Of a stretch of 64,000 nucleotides of DNA, positions 2,767-57,830 are shown in pieces. The notes below the pieces were generated by a model, which saw only the letters and a list, made by a program, of their open reading frames with translations, had not been told where the DNA came from and ran no database searches. The DNA comes from an uncultured Candidatus Saccharibacteria bacterium (lineage in GTDB: Bacteria; Patescibacteriota; UBA1384; DTJR01): assembly GCA_964487045.1 (NCBI GenBank), contig CAZAOT010000001.1:215863-279862 (forward strand). Reading direction: 5' to 3'. The translations under genes were made by a program, and so were the position numbers. Every line of letters begins with the position of its first letter. The stretch's first letter is position 1.

Positions 2767-3018
2767 ATCCCTCCTTATTAATTATATTTTAGGGAAGTGG
2801 TAGCTAAATTGCAACCCGCTCCCGTTTTTAAAATATATTAGAAAAACGGGAAGTCCCGCATCAATTCCTGAAGGCGAACGAGGATGCTTTGCGAAGGTGG
2901 AATTCGCAAATATCAAAATTGTAGATATTACCAATCCTATGTGTTGCATTCAAGAATTTGGTGCTGGGATGTATCATGCTCGTTGCAAGCATTCTCGCTC
3001 GCTGATAAGCTAATAGTC

Positions 3019-4872
3019 ATGGATATTTTAGAAGGCTTAAATCCGGCACAGAAAGAAGCCGTTACGGTGACAGAGGGCCCCGTTTTGATATTGGCTGGAG
3101 CTGGTTCAGGAAAAACTAGAGCGCTTACTCATAGGATCGCCTACTTAATAGGGGAGAAGAGTGTTAGCGTTCAAAATATTTTGGCCGTGACTTTCACCAA
3201 TAAAGCTGCCGGTGTGATGGGCGAAAGAGTATCTAAATTGCTTAAGACAGAAGCTAAATTGCCCTGGCTCGGTACTTTTCACTCTATTTGTGTCAAAATC
3301 CTACGCCGCGAGGTTCACCAGCTCGGCTATTCCAGTAAATTCTCAATATACGATCAGGACGATTCTCTGAGGCTTATCAAACAAACGATGAAATCGCAGG
3401 GTATAGACGAGAAGAAATTTAATCCTCGCGCAATTCAATCTTATATTTCAGGAGCAAAAGGGGAGTTGATCGATGCCAAGGCATATCAAAGTTTTGCTTT
3501 TGACGTATTTCAGGAAAATGTAGCTAAAGTTTATAAAATTTATGAAAGAAAACTTAAAGAGCAGGATGCGCTTGATTTTGATGATTTGATAGGGAAGGCA
3601 GTCGAGCTGTTTCAAAAATTTCCGGAAGTATTAAATAATTATCAAAGTCGTTTTAGATATATCTTGGTCGATGAGTACCAGGACACAAATCATTCTCAAT
3701 ATATTCTGCTTAAATTAATCGCCGAAAAACATCAAAACATCTTCGCGATAGGGGACGACTGGCAGTCGATCTATTCTTTCAGAGGAGCAAAATTTCAGAA
3801 TATTCTTGACTTTAAGAAAGACTATCCAAAGGCAAAAGTGATTTATTTGGAGGAGAATTACAGATCTAAAGCGCCGATTTTGGATGCGGCGCAAGCAATT
3901 ATCAAAAACAATGAACTCAGGTCTGACAAGAGCATCTTTACCAAGAGGGTAGGGGGGTCACCGGTGATGGTCATCGGCTCGCCGACTAAAAACGAAGAAG
4001 TAGAATTTATTCTTGACGAGATCCTATCGCTCAAGATAGGGGAGGGGCGAGAGCTAAATGACTTTGTAATTTTATATCGAATTAACGCCCAATCGCGAGC
4101 TTTTGAGGAATCGATGATGCGCCGCGGACTTCCCTACCGGATCATCGGGGGAGTCAGGTTCTATGAAAGACGCGAAATTAAAGATATTTTGGCGTATTTG
4201 CGTTTCGCCCGCAATCGCCTTGACACCATTTCCCTCTCCAGAATCATAAATGTACCCGCCCGAGGGATCGGCGAGAAAACCGAAAATCAAATTTTGGCTG
4301 ATCTAGATCAAGCTTTAAATTTTCCAAAATTCGCTAAGTTCATGGAGATTATCGAAAAAATTTCTGCTCAAATTGACAAAAACCTCAAGCCAGATGTTTT
4401 GATTGATCATGCACTTACCTTCTCTGGCTACAAGGACTTTCTAAATGACGGAACTATCGAATCTCAAGGCCGACTGGAAAACCTAGAGGAACTCAAAAAT
4501 GCCGCCGCCAGTTTCGAGACACTTGAGGAATTTTTAGAATCAGTCGCTTTAGTATCTGACACGGATAAATTTCAAGAAGATCGTGATTACCTAACTTTGA
4601 TGACCGTACACGCAGCCAAGGGTTTAGAATTTCCAGTTGTTTTTATTTCAGGTTTGGAAGAGGGTGTCTTCCCACATTCACAGAGCCAATTCGATCCTAA
4701 CGAACTTGAAGAAGAACGCAGACTATTATATGTTGGTATGACAAGGGCGATGGAGAGGTTGTATTTAACCTACGCTAGAAGCAAGTATCTCTATGGCCAA
4801 CTGCAATTAGCAACAGAGTCTAGATTTATAAAGGAGTTGCCTGATGACCAAGTCGAAATTATTGATGTGTAG
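3019..4872 (+). CDS. pcrA: ATP-dependent DNA helicase, UvrD/PcrA family
   Basis: Walker A GAGSGKT is followed by UvrD-type motifs. The start was taken at the ATG for MDILEGLNPAQKEAVT; the longer ORF begins at 2884. Confidence 0.85.
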   Translation: MDILEGLNPAQKEAVTVTEGPVLILAGAGSGKTRALTHRIAYLIGEKSVSVQNILAVTFTNKAAGVMGERVSKLLKTEAKLPWLGTFHSICVKILRREVHQLGYSSKFSIYDQDDSLRLIKQTMKSQGIDEKKFNPRAIQSYISGAKGELIDAKAYQSFAFDVFQENVAKVYKIYERKLKEQDALDFDDLIGKAVELFQKFPEVLNNYQSRFRYILVDEYQDTNHSQYILLKLIAEKHQNIFAIGDDWQSIYSFRGAKFQNILDFKKDYPKAKVIYLEENYRSKAPILDAAQAIIKNNELRSDKSIFTKRVGGSPVMVIGSPTKNEEVEFILDEILSLKIGEGRELNDFVILYRINAQSRAFEESMMRRGLPYRIIGGVRFYERREIKDILAYLRFARNRLDTISLSRIINVPARGIGEKTENQILADLDQALNFPKFAKFMEIIEKISAQIDKNLKPDVLIDHALTFSGYKDFLNDGTIESQGRLENLEELKNAAASFETLEEFLESVALVSDTDKFQEDRDYLTLMTVHAAKGLEFPVVFISGLEEGVFPHSQSQFDPNELEEERRLLYVGMTRAMERLYLTYARSKYLYGQLQLATESRFIKELPDDQVEIIDV

Positions 4873-11377: not shown

Positions 11378-12405
11378 CGCAGATCTATAAAATATTGCTC
11401 CTGATTGTTTCAGTGATTTTTATATATGTGATTTTTAGGCAGCTTGGAGACCTGACCAGAGCTGTTGAGACCCTGTCCAAGGGTTCATGGTATTTTATCC
11501 TGCCGGTTCTCGGTATTCAGGTGCTGGCGATAGTCAATAAAGGCGCTCTTTATCAAACGCTCTATGATTATTTCAAGGTGAAAGACACGCTTTGGCGACA
11601 TATCAAGATGCAGCTCGCGGCAAACTTTTTGAATCTCGCTGCGCCCTCGGGTGGATTATCCGGAATGGCCGTTTATGTCGCTCAGGCCAAATCACATGGA
11701 GTCTCCAAGAGTCGCTCGACGTTTATAAATTTCTTTGCCTACTTCTTATACTATGCGGTCTTTACTATTATTCTTCTCTTCGGATTGTTTTATCTAATGC
11801 TCAATCATCAACTCTATCAGTACCAGATCGTAACCGCCTCAATCCTGTTTGGCATGATTATTTTAATTTTAATCGCAGTAATTGCAGTTATCGAAGAGGC
11901 AGCCAGACTCAACAAGCTGTTTTCGCTGGTAGCGAGAATGATTAATTTTATTAGCCGATTTTTCAAGAAGAAAAAGTTAGTCGAAGATCAAGACATTTCT
12001 GCGCTTTCAAAAGAAATTCATAGTTGTTTGAGATATGTCCAAGTCAAATGGAAGGCCTTGTGGCTACCAATTTTTCATGTTCTTTTGGCTGAAGCAATTG
12101 ATATTATGACGTTGTATTATTTGTTTTTGGCCTTCAAATATCCGATTTATCCTGGAATTTTAATAACCGCATACGCTATCTGTGTTTTATTTACCCTAGT
12201 ATCAATCACTCCTGGAGGGATCGGGGTAGTTGAAGCAGCGATGCTGTTCGTATTGTCAAACCTTGGAGTACCGGTAGAATTAGCGGCGGTTGCAGTTTTG
12301 GGGTTTAGAATTATTGGTTACTGGATTCCTTTCGGCTTAGGGTTCTTATCATTTAGGTCGCTTCATAGCGAGAAATTGGAAAAAATCGAGAATGGTACTG
12401 CTTGA
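11359..12405 (+). CDS. UPF0104 / LPG-synthase-TM 'flippase-like' integral membrane protein
   Basis: Multi-TM protein with the GIGVVEA motif typical of the family. It is translationally coupled to the neighbouring genes. Confidence 0.65.
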   Translation: MAKRQVAQIYKILLLIVSVIFIYVIFRQLGDLTRAVETLSKGSWYFILPVLGIQVLAIVNKGALYQTLYDYFKVKDTLWRHIKMQLAANFLNLAAPSGGLSGMAVYVAQAKSHGVSKSRSTFINFFAYFLYYAVFTIILLFGLFYLMLNHQLYQYQIVTASILFGMIILILIAVIAVIEEAARLNKLFSLVARMINFISRFFKKKKLVEDQDISALSKEIHSCLRYVQVKWKALWLPIFHVLLAEAIDIMTLYYLFLAFKYPIYPGILITAYAICVLFTLVSITPGGIGVVEAAMLFVLSNLGVPVELAAVAVLGFRIIGYWIPFGLGFLSFRSLHSEKLEKIENGTA

Positions 12406-13084
12406 TCAATTAGGCCCGAATATCGATCATATTCCGACGCCTAAAAAGAAAAAACAAAATTATATTTGGGCTTTATTTAAAGATATTGTTCTAGTAACTT
12501 TTTTTTCATTTTGTGTTTTCATATTCATCAATTTCCCGGCAATTACATTGATTGGTACTTACAAATTGACTCCACATCGACTCGCTTATGATTTTCCAGC
12601 CCAGGCTGAGACTCAGAGTCCGACTGCTATTGAGTCAAAAACTCCGGAGGCGCCAAAGATTGAACAATATCCTGATAATATGATTTTTATTCCTAAGATC
12701 GGGGTGAAAGCTCCCATCGACTGGGACGTCACAAGTGATAATGTGATGGACGAGCTCGAAAAGAATGTCGTTCATCTCAAGGATACTGATAAGCCGGGTG
12801 GGCCTGGCAATATCTTTGTGACTGGTCACAGCTCAAACTACTGGTGGAAATCAGGAGAGTATAATACGGTCTTCGCTCTAGTTCCTCAGCTTGTCGAGGG
12901 AGATGAAATCATCATCACCTACAAAGGAGAATTTCATTATTATAAGGTCACTGACAAGCAGGAAATGCGAAAAGACGAAGTTTCAAATCATCTCGAATCG
13001 GGTCGGCCAAGACTCACGCTTATGACCTGCGTACCAGTTGGAACGAATTTGAGAAGGATGTTGGTGTTTGCTTCACCCCGTTAG
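12392..13084 (+). CDS. sortase family transpeptidase
   Basis: N-terminal TM helix, catalytic His (VTGHSS), TLxTC motif (LTLMTC) and a conserved Arg. Confidence 0.8.
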   Translation: MVLLDQLGPNIDHIPTPKKKKQNYIWALFKDIVLVTFFSFCVFIFINFPAITLIGTYKLTPHRLAYDFPAQAETQSPTAIESKTPEAPKIEQYPDNMIFIPKIGVKAPIDWDVTSDNVMDELEKNVVHLKDTDKPGGPGNIFVTGHSSNYWWKSGEYNTVFALVPQLVEGDEIIITYKGEFHYYKVTDKQEMRKDEVSNHLESGRPRLTLMTCVPVGTNLRRMLVFASPR

Positions 13085-13232
13085 AGATTAGCGCAAGCCT
13101 TATTATGTTTAATTAGATTAGAAGATAAGAATCGATATTCAAAAATAAACTAAAGGAAGTTTTATCTCTAACGGGGCAAGCCAGTTAAGAAGTAATTTAT
13201 TGAAAATGCACAAGTTTGGTATAATCAATTTG

Positions 13233-13577
13233 ATGAAAAAATCCTATTTATTCCTAGCACTCTTAGGCTTAATTTTTCTGTTTGCAGTAAAAGTCCAAGC
13301 TCAGGGAACCGAGCCTGGCTTGGGTTTGCCGCTTCTAGATGATGTTACCTCGACAGCAACGACAACATCTGGTACTTATACTACTACCCCAATCACAACT
13401 TACTCGACAATTACGCCAACCACCTATACAACTACGACGAGTTCTCTCAGCCAGCAGGCAGTTGATGATGCTGATACAGGGAGTGAAGTGGTTGTGTTAG
13501 TTATTCTCTCAATCACTGGCGGAGTGGGAATTTTCTTAATCAAAAAATACTTCGATTTTAAGCGCTATAGTTTGTAG
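13233..13577 (+). CDS. small Thr-rich surface protein: signal peptide, low-complexity Thr-rich region, C-terminal TM helix and basic tail (candidate sortase substrate)
   Basis: Signal peptide MKKSYLFLALLGLIFLFAVKVQA. C-terminus ...VDDADTGSE-VVVLVILSITGGVGIFLI-KKYFDFKRYSL. The ORF lies directly downstream of the sortase. Confidence 0.6.
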   Translation: MKKSYLFLALLGLIFLFAVKVQAQGTEPGLGLPLLDDVTSTATTTSGTYTTTPITTYSTITPTTYTTTTSSLSQQAVDDADTGSEVVVLVILSITGGVGIFLIKKYFDFKRYSL

Positions 13578-15089: not shown

Positions 15090-15125
15090 CGTAGCTAAAT
15101 ATTAAGTACTAAGTTCTAAATTAGA

Positions 15126-15497
15126 ATGTCAAACAAAGATCAAAACTCAAAATCCAAGAAATACGGATTAGGCGAAAGGTGTTCAAAATTTGGGGAAGAA
15201 ATTATTTTATTTTGTAAGACAATTAAAGAATCTAACATCAATAAAAGCATTATTAATCAATTAATAAGATCCGGAACCTCAATTGGTGCAAATTATATGG
15301 AAGCTGATTGTGCCGAAAGTAAGAAGGACTTTTATCACAAGATAGGTATTTGTAAAAAAGAGTCAAAAGAATCTACGCATTGGCTCAGGATGCTAGCAAC
15401 TTCGGAACAGCATTTAAAAGCTAATTGCAGGAGACTATGGCAAGAAGCTCATGAATTAACATTAATCTTCTCAACAATTATTAAAAATAGAACTTAG
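15126..15497 (+). CDS. four-helix-bundle protein (the family also called 23S rRNA intervening-sequence protein)
   Basis: Characteristic of the family: ...IRSGTSIGANYMEADCAESKKDFYHKIGICKKESKESTHWLRM... Confidence 0.65.
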   Translation: MSNKDQNSKSKKYGLGERCSKFGEEIILFCKTIKESNINKSIINQLIRSGTSIGANYMEADCAESKKDFYHKIGICKKESKESTHWLRMLATSEQHLKANCRRLWQEAHELTLIFSTIIKNRT

Positions 15498-15595
15498 ACC
15501 TTATTATTTTGTTAGAACTTGGAACTTTTAATTTAGAATCTTTTAAGTCCATGCTTGAGATTTGATTGGATGTTGGTTTTTGGTAATTGATATTT

Positions 15596-40544: not shown

Positions 40545-40655
40545 CTCCTTAGGTTGGCTTACTAGCTACACTATAGCACTATTTAGCCCGTTAGAAATTG
40601 CCGACGCCTTGTATGCGCCGATATTGTGTATTTATATCTTAGTCGGCATCGATTT

Positions 40656-41483
40656 CTAACGGGCCGAGAAATATGTCTCTACAAACTTTTTTGCCGCTTT
40701 GAGATTTTTTATCACCGCTTCTTCGGTGATATTTCCCTTCTTATCAGCATACTGTTCGCACCAAAGTTCGATTGAAATTGGACCGAAATATTTATCGGCC
40801 CTTAATTGACGCAAAAATTTTTTAAGTGGTAATTTGCCCTTGCCGGGAAGGAGATGGCAGTCTTCAATATTACCCGGCTTTTTCGGACTTGGTCTCATAT
40901 CAGAGTCAGAAAAATGAACATGGCCGACTTTTTCTTTAATTTTTTCATAATACTGCATAATATCCATTTCGGCAGTTGCGATGTGGGATGTATCTAAATT
41001 TATAGACTCAAAAGCCTGCATCACGTCGAAGTGATAGCTCGGATTGAGAGTATTGCCAGAGGTGAAATCATCGCGTTTGGTCGCATTTTCAATCACCACT
41101 TTAACTGGTTTGGCAAGCTTGAAGACACTCTTTTGATTTTCAATCAACCAAGTGACGTATTGCGGATCAGAGTAATCCCAAGAATGCAAAATTAAATATT
41201 TTGCCTTCAGCTCCTTGGCGAGTTTAATCGATTTCTCGAGTCTATTTTTCCAGTCGCCCCAAGAATAAACAAATTCCATCGCTGAGTGAATTGATGTGAC
41301 CTTGAGGGAAAATTTTCGCTCTAAGCGTTTAATGTATTTGGAGTCTTGAGAGTCGAGTCGGTCATCGATAATTAATTCGATATTCTTAAATCCAGCTTTT
41401 TTCGCAACCTCAAAGAACCGGTATAGCCCATATCGGTGACAAGATCCGGTCGATAAAGTCAATTGATTTTTAAGTGTAGCCAT
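40656..41483 (-). CDS. sugar phosphate isomerase/epimerase (xylose-isomerase-like TIM barrel)
   Basis: AP-endonuclease-2/XylA-like TIM-barrel pattern in backbone composition. Confidence 0.6.
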   Translation of the reverse strand: MATLKNQLTLSTGSCHRYGLYRFFEVAKKAGFKNIELIIDDRLDSQDSKYIKRLERKFSLKVTSIHSAMEFVYSWGDWKNRLEKSIKLAKELKAKYLILHSWDYSDPQYVTWLIENQKSVFKLAKPVKVVIENATKRDDFTSGNTLNPSYHFDVMQAFESINLDTSHIATAEMDIMQYYEKIKEKVGHVHFSDSDMRPSPKKPGNIEDCHLLPGKGKLPLKKFLRQLRADKYFGPISIELWCEQYADKKGNITEEAVIKNLKAAKKFVETYFSAR

Positions 41484-45831: not shown

Positions 45832-46203
45832 ATGAAGAATGAAATCTTACTTGGAATAGATTTTGGAACTAAGAGAGTGGGGGTGGCTATTTCTCATGGA
45901 TTTATGGCCGAAGGGATAGCGACTCTTGGTTTTTCGAATAAGGAAAGTTTTTATAGTGATTTAAAAAAAATAATTGTAGAGCAAAAAATCGAAAAAATAA
46001 TTGTTGGTTTGCCGATGGGTGTTGATGGTGATACGCATCAAACTTTGTGGACTAGGGAAAGAGGCGAGGAGCTCGGTGAAGAAACTGGCCTACCGGTTAT
46101 TTTTGTTGACGAATCATACTCTTCTGTAGAGGCCGACAAGTATAATTCTGATCGTGATAGCGAATCAGCCAGAATAATATTGGAGCAATACTTGGCCCGT
46201 TAG
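45832..46203 (+). CDS. ruvX: putative Holliday junction resolvase / pre-16S rRNA nuclease RuvX (YqgF)
   Basis: Sequence LGIDFGTKRVGVAIS. The stop codon lies inside the inverted-repeat arm gcccgttagagaca. Confidence 0.75.
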   Translation: MKNEILLGIDFGTKRVGVAISHGFMAEGIATLGFSNKESFYSDLKKIIVEQKIEKIIVGLPMGVDGDTHQTLWTRERGEELGEETGLPVIFVDESYSSVEADKYNSDRDSESARIILEQYLAR

Positions 46204-46211
46204 AGACAACC

Positions 46212-46472
46212 ATGTATTATACTTATGTATTGCGAAGTAGCAAAGATAAGCATCTCTATACAGGTTGCACAAAAGATTTACGGAAGCGCTTAGATCAGCA
46301 TGTTAGAGGGCGGGTTTATCCAACTCAAGCTAGGGGACCATTTGAAGTGATATACTATGAAGCGTGTTTGGATAAGCAAGACGCTTTTGCAAGAGAAAAA
46401 TATTTAAAAACAGGGTACGGGAAACGTTATCTGAAAAACAGGCTTAAGCGCTTCCTGTCTCTAACGGGTTAA
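46212..46472 (+). CDS. GIY-YIG nuclease-domain protein (UPF0213/YhbQ-like), flanked by 14-bp inverted repeats
   Basis: GIY-YIG pattern YYTYVLRS...LYTGCT...R...H. The inverted repeats lie at 46195-46208 and 46456-46469. Confidence 0.75.
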   Translation: MYYTYVLRSSKDKHLYTGCTKDLRKRLDQHVRGRVYPTQARGPFEVIYYEACLDKQDAFAREKYLKTGYGKRYLKNRLKRFLSLTG

Positions 46473-55144: not shown

Positions 55145-57830
55145 TAGACTTTTTGGCGGTAGCAATTCACGAGAAGTTAGAAAGCTCGATTCTATTGTTG
55201 CAAAAATTAACTCCTTTGAAGAAGAATATAAAAGTTTAAAAGACGAAGAGCTTCCTAAGAAGACTGAGGATTTTAAGCAAAGAATAGCCTCAGGCGAAAC
55301 CCTTGATAGCATTTTGCCTGAAGCTTTTGCTCTTGTGCGTGAAGCATCTGGAAGAGAGATCGGCCAGAGGCATTTTAATGTTCAGATGATGGGAGGAATC
55401 GTTCTGCATCAAGGCAAGATCGCTGAAATGCGAACTGGAGAAGGTAAGACTTTGGTCGCTACTTTGCCTTTATATCTAAATGCACTCTCGGGCAAGGGAG
55501 CTCATCTAGTCACCGTAAACGATTATCTCTCTAAGTATCAGGGAGAATGGATGGGTCGGGTTTATGATCGATTGGGCCTTAAAACAGGGATTATCCAAAA
55601 CCAAGGTGTGAGCTTTATTTTTGATCGTGCCTGGAATAAGGAAAAGACAGAAGATGAAAAAAAGGCAGCCGAAGTATGGGAAGAAAACTTAAAGCCATGC
55701 ACTAGGGCTGAGGCTTACTTAGCTGACATTACTTATGGAACTAACAATGAATATGGTTTTGATTACTTGCGTGATAATATGGCACAAAGCAAAGAGCAAC
55801 TTGTTCAAAGGGATCTTAACTTTTCTATTGTCGATGAAGTTGACTCGATCCTAATTGATGAAGCAAGGACCCCACTTATTATTTCTTCTGCTGCCGAAGA
55901 GTCAGCTTCGCTTTATGCTCAGTTTGCCATGATCGTGCCACAGCTTAAAAAGGATCTGGATTTTGAAGTTGACGAAAAGTTAAAGGCGATCTCACTGACT
56001 GATGATGGAATCTCAAAACTCGAAAAAATTCTGAAGGTAGATAATATTTATAGGCCAGAGACGATCGCATTGGTGCACCATCTTGAGGAGGCGCTAAAGG
56101 CTCATGCACTATTTCAAAAAGATAAAGATTATATTGTCAAAGATGGCGAAGTTATTATTGTGGATGAATTTACTGGCAGACTAATGCCAGGCAGAAGGTA
56201 TTCAGAAGGCTTACATCAGGCTATAGAAGCCAAAGAGGGCGTGATGGTAAATCGCGAATCTGATACCTTAGCGACGATTTCTTTCCAAAATTTCTTTAGA
56301 TTGTATGGCAAGCTTTCCGGTATGACAGGAACGGCTGCGACAGAGGCGGAAGAATTTCATAAGATTTATAAACTTGACGTTGTCGAGATTCCCACCAATA
56401 GTCCGATGGTCAGAATCGATATGCAGGATCAGATTTATAAAAATGAAGCAGCAAAGTTCAACGCCATTAGTGAAAAGATCAAGGAGCTTAGCGAAAAAGG
56501 TCAGCCAGTTTTGGTCGGAACTATTTCGATCGAAAAATCAGAAGTACTATCAAAATTACTTAAACGTTCTGGCGTAAAGCATGAAGTCTTAAATGCAAAA
56601 GCCCATGAGAAAGAGGCAAAAATTATTGCTCAGGCTGGAAGGCTTGGAGCGGTAACAGTTGCAACCAACATGGCCGGAAGAGGAGTAGACATCTTGCTTG
56701 GAGGAAGTCCCCAGATCAAGGAAGAAGCCGATAAAGTCAGAAAACTTGGCGGCTTAGTTGTCCTTGGTACTGAGCGACACGAGTCAAGACGTATAGACAA
56801 CCAGCTTCGTGGACGATCTGGTCGTCAGGGTGACCCTGGGATGAGTCAATTTTACATTTCAATGGATGATGATTTGATGAGAATTTTTGGCGGAGATCGT
56901 CTAAAGGGCATGATGGAGCGTATGGGTTTGCCAGAAGACCAGCCAATTGAACATTCATTTATATCTAAGTCGATCGAATCAGCGCAAAGGAGAGTTGAAG
57001 GGCATAACTTTGATATTAGAAAACATTTAGTTGAATACGATGATGTTATGAATCGACAGAGAGAAGTTTTTTATCGAAAACGAAAAAGTATACTTTCGCT
57101 CGACGTCGAAAAGGACGAGTTCCTGCATGATGAAATTTTGGAAAAACTTTCAGAAGAAGAAAAAGCTAGCTATCTGTCAAATTCTAAAAATGTTGACCCG
57201 AGAGCGATCAGAGATCTGGAGAGAAGAATATATCTCTCTATCATGGACCAGCTGTGGGTTGAGCATCTAAACACGATGGATCAATTAAGGGACTCTATAG
57301 GACTAAGGGGCTATGGCCAAGTCGATCCGCTTATTGCCTACAAAGAAGAGTCGCTAAGGCTTTTTGAAGGATTGATGCATCAAATAGACGACGAAGCGAT
57401 TGATGTCCTCGTAAAAATTAAAATAGATCAATCAGCTTCAAATTCAGCTGCTAAGCCTACCGTGCAAAAAAATAATCCGCTTGAATATCATGGAGCAGAC
57501 GAAACCGAAGGATCTGAAGTCATTGAAGAGACGAAAAATAGTTTAGAAACTTCCGCTCGCCCCGTTAGAGATTTACGAGAAGAAGCTGGTGAGCAGGCTA
57601 ATGATTATACACAAAATCCTGAGATCTCTAACGGGGTAAAAAAATCCCCAGAAAAACTTCCTACTAAGAAAGCTAGCGGCGGGGTGGTTGTCACAGTTAG
57701 AGATGCATCTAAGAAAATGGAGCAAGCGGTTAATCAGTCAGGCTCACCAAAACAAAACTCAAATATTGGACGCAACGATCCTTGTCCGTGCGGCAGCGGG
57801 AAAAAGTACAAAAAATGCCACGGTAAGTAA
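55125..57830 (+). CDS. secA: preprotein translocase ATPase SecA
   Basis: Motifs [14 protein letters not shown], a DEAD-like region, and the C-terminal zinc finger [14 protein letters not shown]. An in-frame inverted-repeat insertion lies in the C-terminal tail at 57560-57635. Confidence 0.9.

Follow-up and report, generated by a model that had tools for sequence, protein, structure and literature searches.

The locus downstream of the sortase gene in the analyzed stretch of Candidatus Saccharibacteria DNA (64,000 nt, GC content 42%; hereafter, the window) raised the question of what the pair of inverted repeats located between this gene and its neighbor represents. The sortase gene (12392-13084, + strand) ends in TCA CCC CGT TAG (…SPR*, the asterisk denoting the stop), and its last codons and stop come from the left arm of the repeat, CCCCGTTAGAGAT (13076-13088, + strand, 13 nt), which holds the TAG at 13082-13084. 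The right arm, ATCTCTAACGGGG (13164-13176, + strand, 13 nt), is 100% complementary to the left one and lies 75 nt away from it, and the next gene (13233-13577, + strand) encodes a small secreted protein that is a candidate sortase substrate. A preliminary description of this DNA had proposed that the arms enclose a 75-nt spacer behind the sortase and that the stop codons of the sortase and of ruvX both lie inside the first arm, and the coordinates of the open reading frames (ORFs) and the arms bore out both statements. The analysis reported here indicated that the region 13076-13176 is probably a non-autonomous copy, with an internal deletion, of a miniature inverted-repeat element, the complete form of which is found at 46196-46468. 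This complete form is likely to be a miniature mobile element in which the gene of an 86-aa GIY-YIG nuclease, closest to UPF0213/SLX1, is bracketed by the 13-bp repeats YCCCGTTAGARAN.

Four copies of one inverted repeat in the window

Four inverted-repeat pairs, all with the same 13-bp arms, were found in the window. On the two strands together, the core of the arm, CCCGTTAGARAY, was matched exactly 8 times, whereas 100 shuffles predicted 0.03; each of these 8 matches belongs to one of the four convergent pairs. The frequency of the arm motif in the window is not a matter of chance. Of the three reading frames of the arm, one (..C CGT TAG) contains a stop, and the other two are open and encode P-V-R-D or P-L-E. 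TAG is an ordinary stop codon in the source genome, where it was used by 13 of 46 long ORFs. An attC-like reading of GTTAGAG/CTCTAAC was also considered and was rejected by inspection, the orientation of the core sites being the reverse of that in integron attC.

The full-length copy (element C, 273 nt, 46196-46468, + strand; arms CCCGTTAGAGACA and TGTCTCTAACGGG) matched the profile of full elements with an nhmmer E-value of 1.6e-68. It is located behind ruvX (45832-46203, + strand), which ends in GCC CGT TAG (…LAR*) with its TAG (46201-46203) inside the arm at 46196-46208, and it carries a single-domain GIY-YIG nuclease ORF of 86 aa (46212-46472, + strand; Pfam GIY-YIG, E = 1e-16, residues 1-71). 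Arm 1 ends 4 nt before the ATG of the nuclease, whose C-terminal residues, S-L-T-G, are encoded by arm 2. The stop codon of the host gene is found 8-16 nt upstream of the nuclease ATG, and a ribosome-binding site of its own was not obvious there.

The copy behind the sortase (element A) has no ORF, and the segment taken as inserted (13072-13176, + strand, 105 nt) would be an internally deleted derivative of the GIY-YIG element. When its interior was compared with a profile built from 73 full elements, it matched both the 5′ end (profile positions 1-68) and the 3′ end (233-279). The score of this match was 16.1, against 6.0 ± 1.7 when only the interior was shuffled, and none of 200 shuffles reached 16.1.

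The other two copies are also ORF-less. Element B (40587-40663, not assigned to a strand; arms CCCGTTAGAAAT) can form a longer imperfect stem (40586-40609 with 40641-40664) and overlaps the end of a xylose-isomerase-like TIM-barrel gene on the - strand (40656-41483). This gene ends in TCG GCC CGT TAG (...YFSAR*), with its stop at 40656-40658 inside the arm at 40652-40663, and its ...SAR* end is a third stop codon drawn from an arm that the preliminary description had not included. Element D (57561-57635, + strand, 75 nt, equal to 25 codons; arms at 57560-57572 and 57624-57636) is located in the variable C-terminal linker of secA, in frame with it, and is translated as PVRD...ISNG.

Additionally, the arm-like sequence ACAGTTAGAGAT at 57693-57704 in secA, which encodes TVRD 57 nt after element D, was considered as a third arm at this site and probably is not one. 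The secA relatives L089 and L090 keep the peptide TVRD with other codons (ACG GTT CGG GAT), and the site probably reflects either conservation at the protein level or a very old arm.

Empty sites and the C-termini of the host proteins

The preliminary description had also suggested that the insertion of the element reset the C-termini of its host genes. This suggestion was supported by empty orthologous sites, by a relic of the former sortase end (PVKK*) and by in-silico excisions. When the C-terminal lengths of sortase and RuvX orthologues were compared, the syntenic orthologues without arms were found to end differently; orthologues sharing the same end residue and lacking the motif at the DNA level were looked for at these two genes and not found.

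In the case of the sortase, the Pfam domain is complete (positions 1-124 of 125) and ends at residue 229 of 230. Orthologues of this protein end in ...FA(E/K/S/D)P followed by zero to four residues. The syntenic loci L081 and L082, whose sortase is 73% identical, have no arms; there the protein ends in ...FAEPVNK* and a gap of 37 nt separates it from the substrate gene. The probable ATG of the window substrate gene, at 13233, aligns with the start of its orthologue in L081. Directly after arm 2 of element A, a now non-coding stretch (13177-13195, + strand), C AAG CCA GTT AAG AAG TAA, reads (A)KPVKK* and aligns to the PVNK* end of the L081 sortase, as expected of a relic of the ancestral 3′ end of the gene. 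The in-silico deletion of the 105 nt from 13072 to 13176 gave a sortase ending in ...LVFAKPVKK*. The ...FASPR end was shared only by a relative whose contig carries the nuclease gene right after ruvX.

A separate observation was made in L083, a sortase-locus orthologue with 67% identity. Another 13-bp inverted repeat, CCCCCACACTTAT and ATAAGTGTGGGGG, about 70 nt apart (approximately 3712-3806), occupies there the same gap between sortase and substrate as the CCCCGTTAGAGAT element does in the window. No occurrence of the CCCCCACACTTAT/ATAAGTGTGGGGG motif was detected in the window.

A similar picture was obtained for ruvX, whose Pfam domain is complete as well (positions 2-133 of 134). RuvX orthologues end in ...ILEQYL followed by two to eight residues, and the in-silico deletion of 46196-46468 (273 nt) gave a RuvX ending in ...EQYLVKQS*, with its TGA overlapping the ATG of yceG. 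Empty ruvX/yceG junctions were observed in L085 (RuvX ...YLAS*, with a single base between the stop and the yceG ATG), L088 (...YLEQTK*, overlapping a yceG GTG) and L087 (...YLNGK*). Once again, the ...YLAR end was shared only by the relative with a nuclease gene right after ruvX. Furthermore, an ORF-less element was found at the same junction in L139, a 48%-identical relative, where RuvX ends in ...YLPR*. Since L139 is filled and the intermediate relatives are empty, either the element entered this junction on more than one occasion or it was lost from it repeatedly.

The in-silico deletion of element B changed the end of the TIM-barrel protein from ...YFSAR* to ...YFSAK*, and the homologues of this protein end at the same place as the window protein. 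Element D is shared by the closest secA relatives, L089 and L090, with decaying arms and a diverged interior, and the more distant SecA proteins do not have it. The copies landed in the last one to five codons of the sortase, ruvX and TIM-barrel genes. The arm ends these ORFs in (S/A/T/P)R* because one of its frames is ..C CGT TAG, and the copy in secA is read through because the other two frames are open. The size of the C-terminal reset was one to five residues, and the effect of the insertion on the host proteins is trivial. For annotation, this means that the protein ends ...PR*, ...AR* and ...TR*, and the odd 25-residue PVRD...SNG inserts, are footprints of the element in these genomes and not native sequence.

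The nuclease and its arms in other bacteria

The AlphaFold2 model of the nuclease (pLDDT 90) consisted of one compact domain and a C-terminal helix. The nearest structural matches were UPF0213 BH0048 and Slx1 (TM scores of 0.64-0.67), I-TevI being more distant, and the nearest solved sequences were likewise UPF0213 proteins (BH0048, E = 7e-10), a proximity that hints at a clade neighboring the Ssn nucleases discussed below. A total of 2948 homologues was found, of which the best 120 had 69-100% identity, and the C-terminus KRFLSLTG was invariant in the family. The NCBIfam model grpIintron_endo matched with E = 6e-4 in the catalytic part only, and a PHROG homing endonuclease family matched with E = 2e-5 over 65 residues of a 574-position profile. 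Searches of plasmid and phage protein collections gave weak matches only (about 40% identity), to generic GIY-YIG proteins. No transposase of the DDE, HUH, serine or tyrosine type was found in the element, whose sole ORF is the GIY-YIG nuclease.

The family was surveyed in one genome per GTDB species, and 481 loci with both the gene and the arms were confirmed. They belonged to Patescibacteria, Omnitrophota, Planctomycetota, Thermodesulfobacteriota, Nitrospirota, Elusimicrobiota, Clostridia, Bdellovibrionales and others. The element would appear to be abundant in uncultured lineages such as Patescibacteria and Omnitrophota, which surveys based on RefSeq probably under-sample.

The linkage of gene and arms was examined in 66 non-redundant genes picked by protein motif only. 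CCGTTAG was present within 40 nt upstream of codon 1 in 60 of the 66, and TCTCTAACGG at codons 83-86 in 56 of them. Ser83, an amino acid with six-fold degenerate codons, was encoded by TCT in all 63 genes compared (63/63), and the neighboring Arg and Leu codons varied freely; a frozen codon between free neighbors indicated a constraint on the DNA and not only on the protein. In 104 non-redundant arm pairs, the inverted repeat was exactly 13 bp long. The four variable positions of the arms matched each other in 91-99% of these pairs, against 43-81% expected, and the matching between arms fell to chance level one base further in or out. This covariation supports the pairing or co-recognition of the two arms.

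Copies within the same genome had 94-99% identity over about 275 nt and unrelated flanks, and the identity ended at C-CCCG...CGGG-G. The element is a discrete unit, with no identity beyond the arms, and the gene and the arms travel together. Direct repeats of 6 bp flanking CCCG...CGGG (for example GTTTAC, ATGAGT, ATGGAT, GCTGGC, GCTTGC and GTAAAC) were perfect in 13 of 103 copies, against 1.3 expected and a maximum of 7 in 5000 permutations. At least five of the six positions matched in 27 of the 103 copies (8.2 expected), and most copies were without a flanking duplication. In addition, 33 short ORF-less pairs with 9-171 nt between the arms were found in the same loci, and some of these pairs still contain codons from the start or the end of the nuclease gene. 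Back-to-back elements (e.g., ...CTAACGGGATGATCCCGTTAG...) separated by 5-8 nt were observed at L065 2763-3161, L069 1782-2013 and L056 2295-2506, and a full copy can precede an internally deleted one in this arrangement, a pattern suggesting that elements insert beside, or within, copies already present.

The donation of stop codons was also detected in other taxa: PGK ends in ...PR* before tpiA in three Omnitrophota, YidC in ...SPR* and SHMT in ...LTR*. This donation would be a passive by-product of the arm sequence.

Other junctions with host genes were observed as well. Five full elements (L054 2984-3750; L058 374-646, 1132-1404 and 2985-3257; L069 2981-3257) carry a nuclease ORF without a stop after ...SLTG, which continues in frame into F(T/S)xxE and a hydrophobic stretch, e.g., LSLTG followed by FTILEILIVILAL. 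This junction resembles a prepilin cleavage/methylation site, and the flanking duplication GTTTAC corresponds to its G-F-T codons. The short pilin motif was not called by Pfam in these L054, L058 and L069 fusions, in which the nuclease may be an oversized leader cut off by prepilin peptidase.

A second subgroup, flanked by the repeat ATGA(A/G)T, comprises L016, L017, L020, L025, L033, L034, L036, L051, L053, L055, L068 and L075 (approximately 2980-3265 in most of them). The repeat is the start of the downstream host gene. A nuclease with an N-terminal extension (MNPVRE... or MSPVRE...) begins at the left copy, and in the right copy (GGGATGA) the ATG overlaps the TGA that ends the nuclease. This subgroup appears to borrow the translation signals of the host, whose gene would be restarted by coupling.

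Moreover, in ORF6N-domain genes of Planctomycetota, Syntrophales, Thermodesulfobacteriota and Nitrospiraceae, a full element was found at the same position near the 3′ end, around 2980, with ...FDAIR(E/Q)L before the element and ...PPEPK... after it. The arm is read in the PVR frame in L002, L014, L015, L022, L024, L037 and L066, and in the PLE frame in L050 and L067. Recurrent targeting could account for this pattern, or else co-transfer with the ORF6N gene.

Mechanism, precedents and competing explanations

The closest precedent for this pairing of nuclease and repeats was found in the Ssn proteins. These are GIY-YIG nucleases of a single domain whose genes are flanked by hairpin repeats, and they cut single-stranded DNA beside those repeats (Chenal et al., 2025, Nat Commun, PMC11893778). 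The resemblance of the Ssn layout to an insertion sequence (IS) was noted by its authors (PMC11893778). By analogy with the Ssn nucleases and with SLX1, which is structure-selective, the nuclease described here would recognize a hairpin or the paired ends of the two arms, most plausibly a hairpin formed in single-stranded DNA, and its cuts would promote the copying or movement of the segment between the arms. Insertions would often be flanked by a 6-bp target duplication, and the duplications suggest a staggered cleavage of the target. Survivorship may explain the sites at which copies are found: in a gene-dense genome, the insertions that survive would sit at gene boundaries, where an arm that either stops or reads through is tolerated. 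The short distance between the host stop and the nuclease ATG may also aid translation of the nuclease by coupling.

The mobility of the element was suggested by several signals: its ends are discrete and its arms covary, copies in the same genome are nearly identical, 6-bp duplications are enriched, and empty sites exist. If this mobility is real, it would be the smallest self-contained bacterial mobile element and the first driven by a GIY-YIG nuclease. Several points weighed against this explanation of the locus. Strand transfer is not known for any GIY-YIG nuclease. The window has a single nuclease gene, fixed at one locus in five samples: an exact look-up of the protein returned five contigs, all with the same ruvX-yceG locus. 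No flanking direct repeat was found at the four window copies and, with one nuclease gene at one fixed locus, this means that no movement was seen in the source genome. The profile comparison detected no residual similarity to the nuclease gene inside elements B and D. Among the long ORFs running into an arm, 20 used the TAG frame, 16 the PVR frame and 10 the PLE frame; this enrichment of the TAG frame was not significant and its cases are not independent, owing to shared ancestry, so that stop donation is not demonstrably selected. Finally, the evidence for mobility and for the action of the nuclease is comparative.

A broader proposal, which we advance tentatively and at somewhat less than even odds, is that the CCCGTTAGAG-bounded unit represents an undescribed class of minimal autonomous mobile element. 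It would be about 273 bp long, with 13-bp ends and a 6-bp duplication, and would be moved by an 86-aa UPF0213/SLX1-like GIY-YIG nuclease acting on a hairpin of its own ends. Evolution would have made these ends compatible with coding (one frame with a stop, two frames open, life in the first or last codons), and the unit would borrow host stops, starts and prepilin leader sites in more than 10 phyla.

Among the alternatives, a free-standing homing endonuclease of the GIY-YIG type (I-TevI, Seg), cutting a few preferred targets and copied into them by repair, was considered unlikely, although it has the most to recommend it. The arms would then be a part of the cassette or remnants of palindromic targets, and the ORF-less pairs decayed homing cassettes. 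The catalytic domain, the selfish horizontal spread and the recurrence at certain host sites are shared with such enzymes, and the nuclease has a weak similarity to the catalytic domain of a phage homing endonuclease. The same site was filled in different taxa at the ORF6N 3′ end (L002, L014, L015, L022, L024, L037, L066), and repeatedly at the pgk-tpiA junction (L012, L061, L063) and at the prepilin site between G and F; the ruvX/yceG junction, filled in the window and in the 48%-identical relative and empty in between, fits as well. Nevertheless, the insertion sites were very diverse overall, the 86-aa protein has no DNA-binding domain of the I-TevI/Seg kind, and neither conserved inverted repeats nor ORF-less derivatives are features of homing endonuclease genes. 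The perfect arms of the compact ORF-less copies and the enrichment of 6-bp direct repeats also argue against homing. Less probable still, with only a small chance in our estimation, is a domesticated Ssn-like host system, in which the arms would be sites for a nuclease specific for single-stranded DNA that modulates recombination or DNA uptake, as NTS/SsnA in Neisseria, and the copies would have spread by recombination and not through the action of the nuclease. The architecture is alike, a single-domain GIY-YIG protein (about 94 aa in Ssn, 86 aa here) being tied to its own hairpin-forming inverted-repeat motif, with extra gene-less copies of the repeat dispersed in the genome in both systems (PMC11893778), and Ssn offers a plausible model for the recognition of hairpins in single-stranded DNA. 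The one fixed nuclease copy of the source species and the age of the insertions, which are old and shared with relatives, would also be in line with a host function. However, the repeat sequence is unrelated. The published Ssn repeat motif, SRM (HGTCWYN(0-2)YYVSBRHN(0-5)WNVSBRGN(0-2)RNCYNB), had 0 matches in the 64-kb window (0.2 in shuffles) and 1 in the 437,636 bases of the related loci L001-L079. Two 13-bp arms bracket here the whole gene, or a spacer of 9-171 nt, as one long hairpin, instead of compact hairpins of 20-50 nt on each side; arm 2 is coding sequence; and the closest solved relatives are UPF0213/SLX1. Neither the 6-bp flanking duplications nor the in-frame or stop-donating insertions have been described for Ssn. 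Near-identical same-genome copies with unrelated flanks, the enriched duplications and the 70-86% amino-acid identity across phyla, which suggests selfish horizontal spread, all speak for a mobile element instead of a host system. On these features, the element is to be regarded as distinct from the published Ssn system.

The preliminary description had further suggested that the arms form an intergenic terminator or attenuator hairpin between the sortase and its substrate. The folding half of this suggestion held: the RNA of 13070-13182 gave -32.7 kcal/mol (z = -4.8), so the transcript between these two co-oriented genes can form the 13-bp stem. This stability came from the two arms alone, which close a 75-nt loop, and the regulatory half was not supported. 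Arm 2 of element A is followed by CAAGCCAG, without a U-tract, and no terminator-like site was present within 13076-13190; a terminator and promoter scan of 12800-13400 gave nothing at the element, and the Rfam gathering search of the whole window returned tRNAs only, with no family match anywhere near it. Identical arms are also found within the reading frame of secA and on either side of the nuclease gene, and the orthologous sortase-substrate operon of L081 works without the element. A regulatory RNA was therefore judged extremely improbable at this site.

The reading of the locus as a miniature mobile element was also compared with other known systems. As in miniature inverted-repeat transposable elements and insertion sequences with terminal inverted repeats, the repeats (13 bp here) mark the limits of the repeated unit, autonomous copies coexist with internally deleted non-autonomous ones, near-identical copies have unrelated flanks, short direct repeats flank some of the copies, and orthologous sites are empty (sortase in L081/L082; ruvX/yceG in L085, L088 and L087). 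Unlike in those elements, the protein is an 86-aa GIY-YIG nuclease and not a DDE, HUH, serine or tyrosine transposase, and duplications were found in only about a quarter of the copies. The full element, with about 273 bp, is to our knowledge far below the size of any known autonomous IS (ISfinder families). The Rickettsia palindromic elements (RPEs) are also short and palindromic and are translated in frame inside protein genes, as the secA copy is; nevertheless, their sequences are unrelated, RPEs are not known to have an associated nuclease gene, and the arms of the present element contain, in addition, a stop codon in one frame. In the REP/BIME repeats with RAYT (Y1 HUH), a small nuclease gene is likewise flanked by hairpin-forming repeats thought to be its substrate, with gene-less repeats at gene ends, but the fold and chemistry here are those of GIY-YIG and not of HUH, and two separated arms replace the compact REP hairpins.

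Literature searches with the arm sequence returned unrelated primer matches only, and in those on GIY-YIG proteins with repeats or transposition the Ssn paper alone was relevant; no description of the present element was found in them. The element would add a second, differently built nuclease-repeat pair beside Ssn/SRM. The specificity of the nuclease is directly testable, given a short, well-defined recognition site with naturally covarying variable positions.

Two other segments of the window were of note. Next to element B, the segment 41542-42354 has long overlapping ORFs on both strands with Gly/Arg/Ala-rich translations, unlike the rest of the window; this points to a segment that is GC-rich or of foreign composition. 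Not far from the sortase locus, an ORF of 123 aa (15126-15497) lies between the arms of an imperfect 27-nt inverted repeat (15092-15514; 81% complementary). By its sequence the encoded protein resembles a four-helix-bundle protein of the "23S rRNA intervening sequence" type, and its gene provides another example of a small ORF between inverted repeats.

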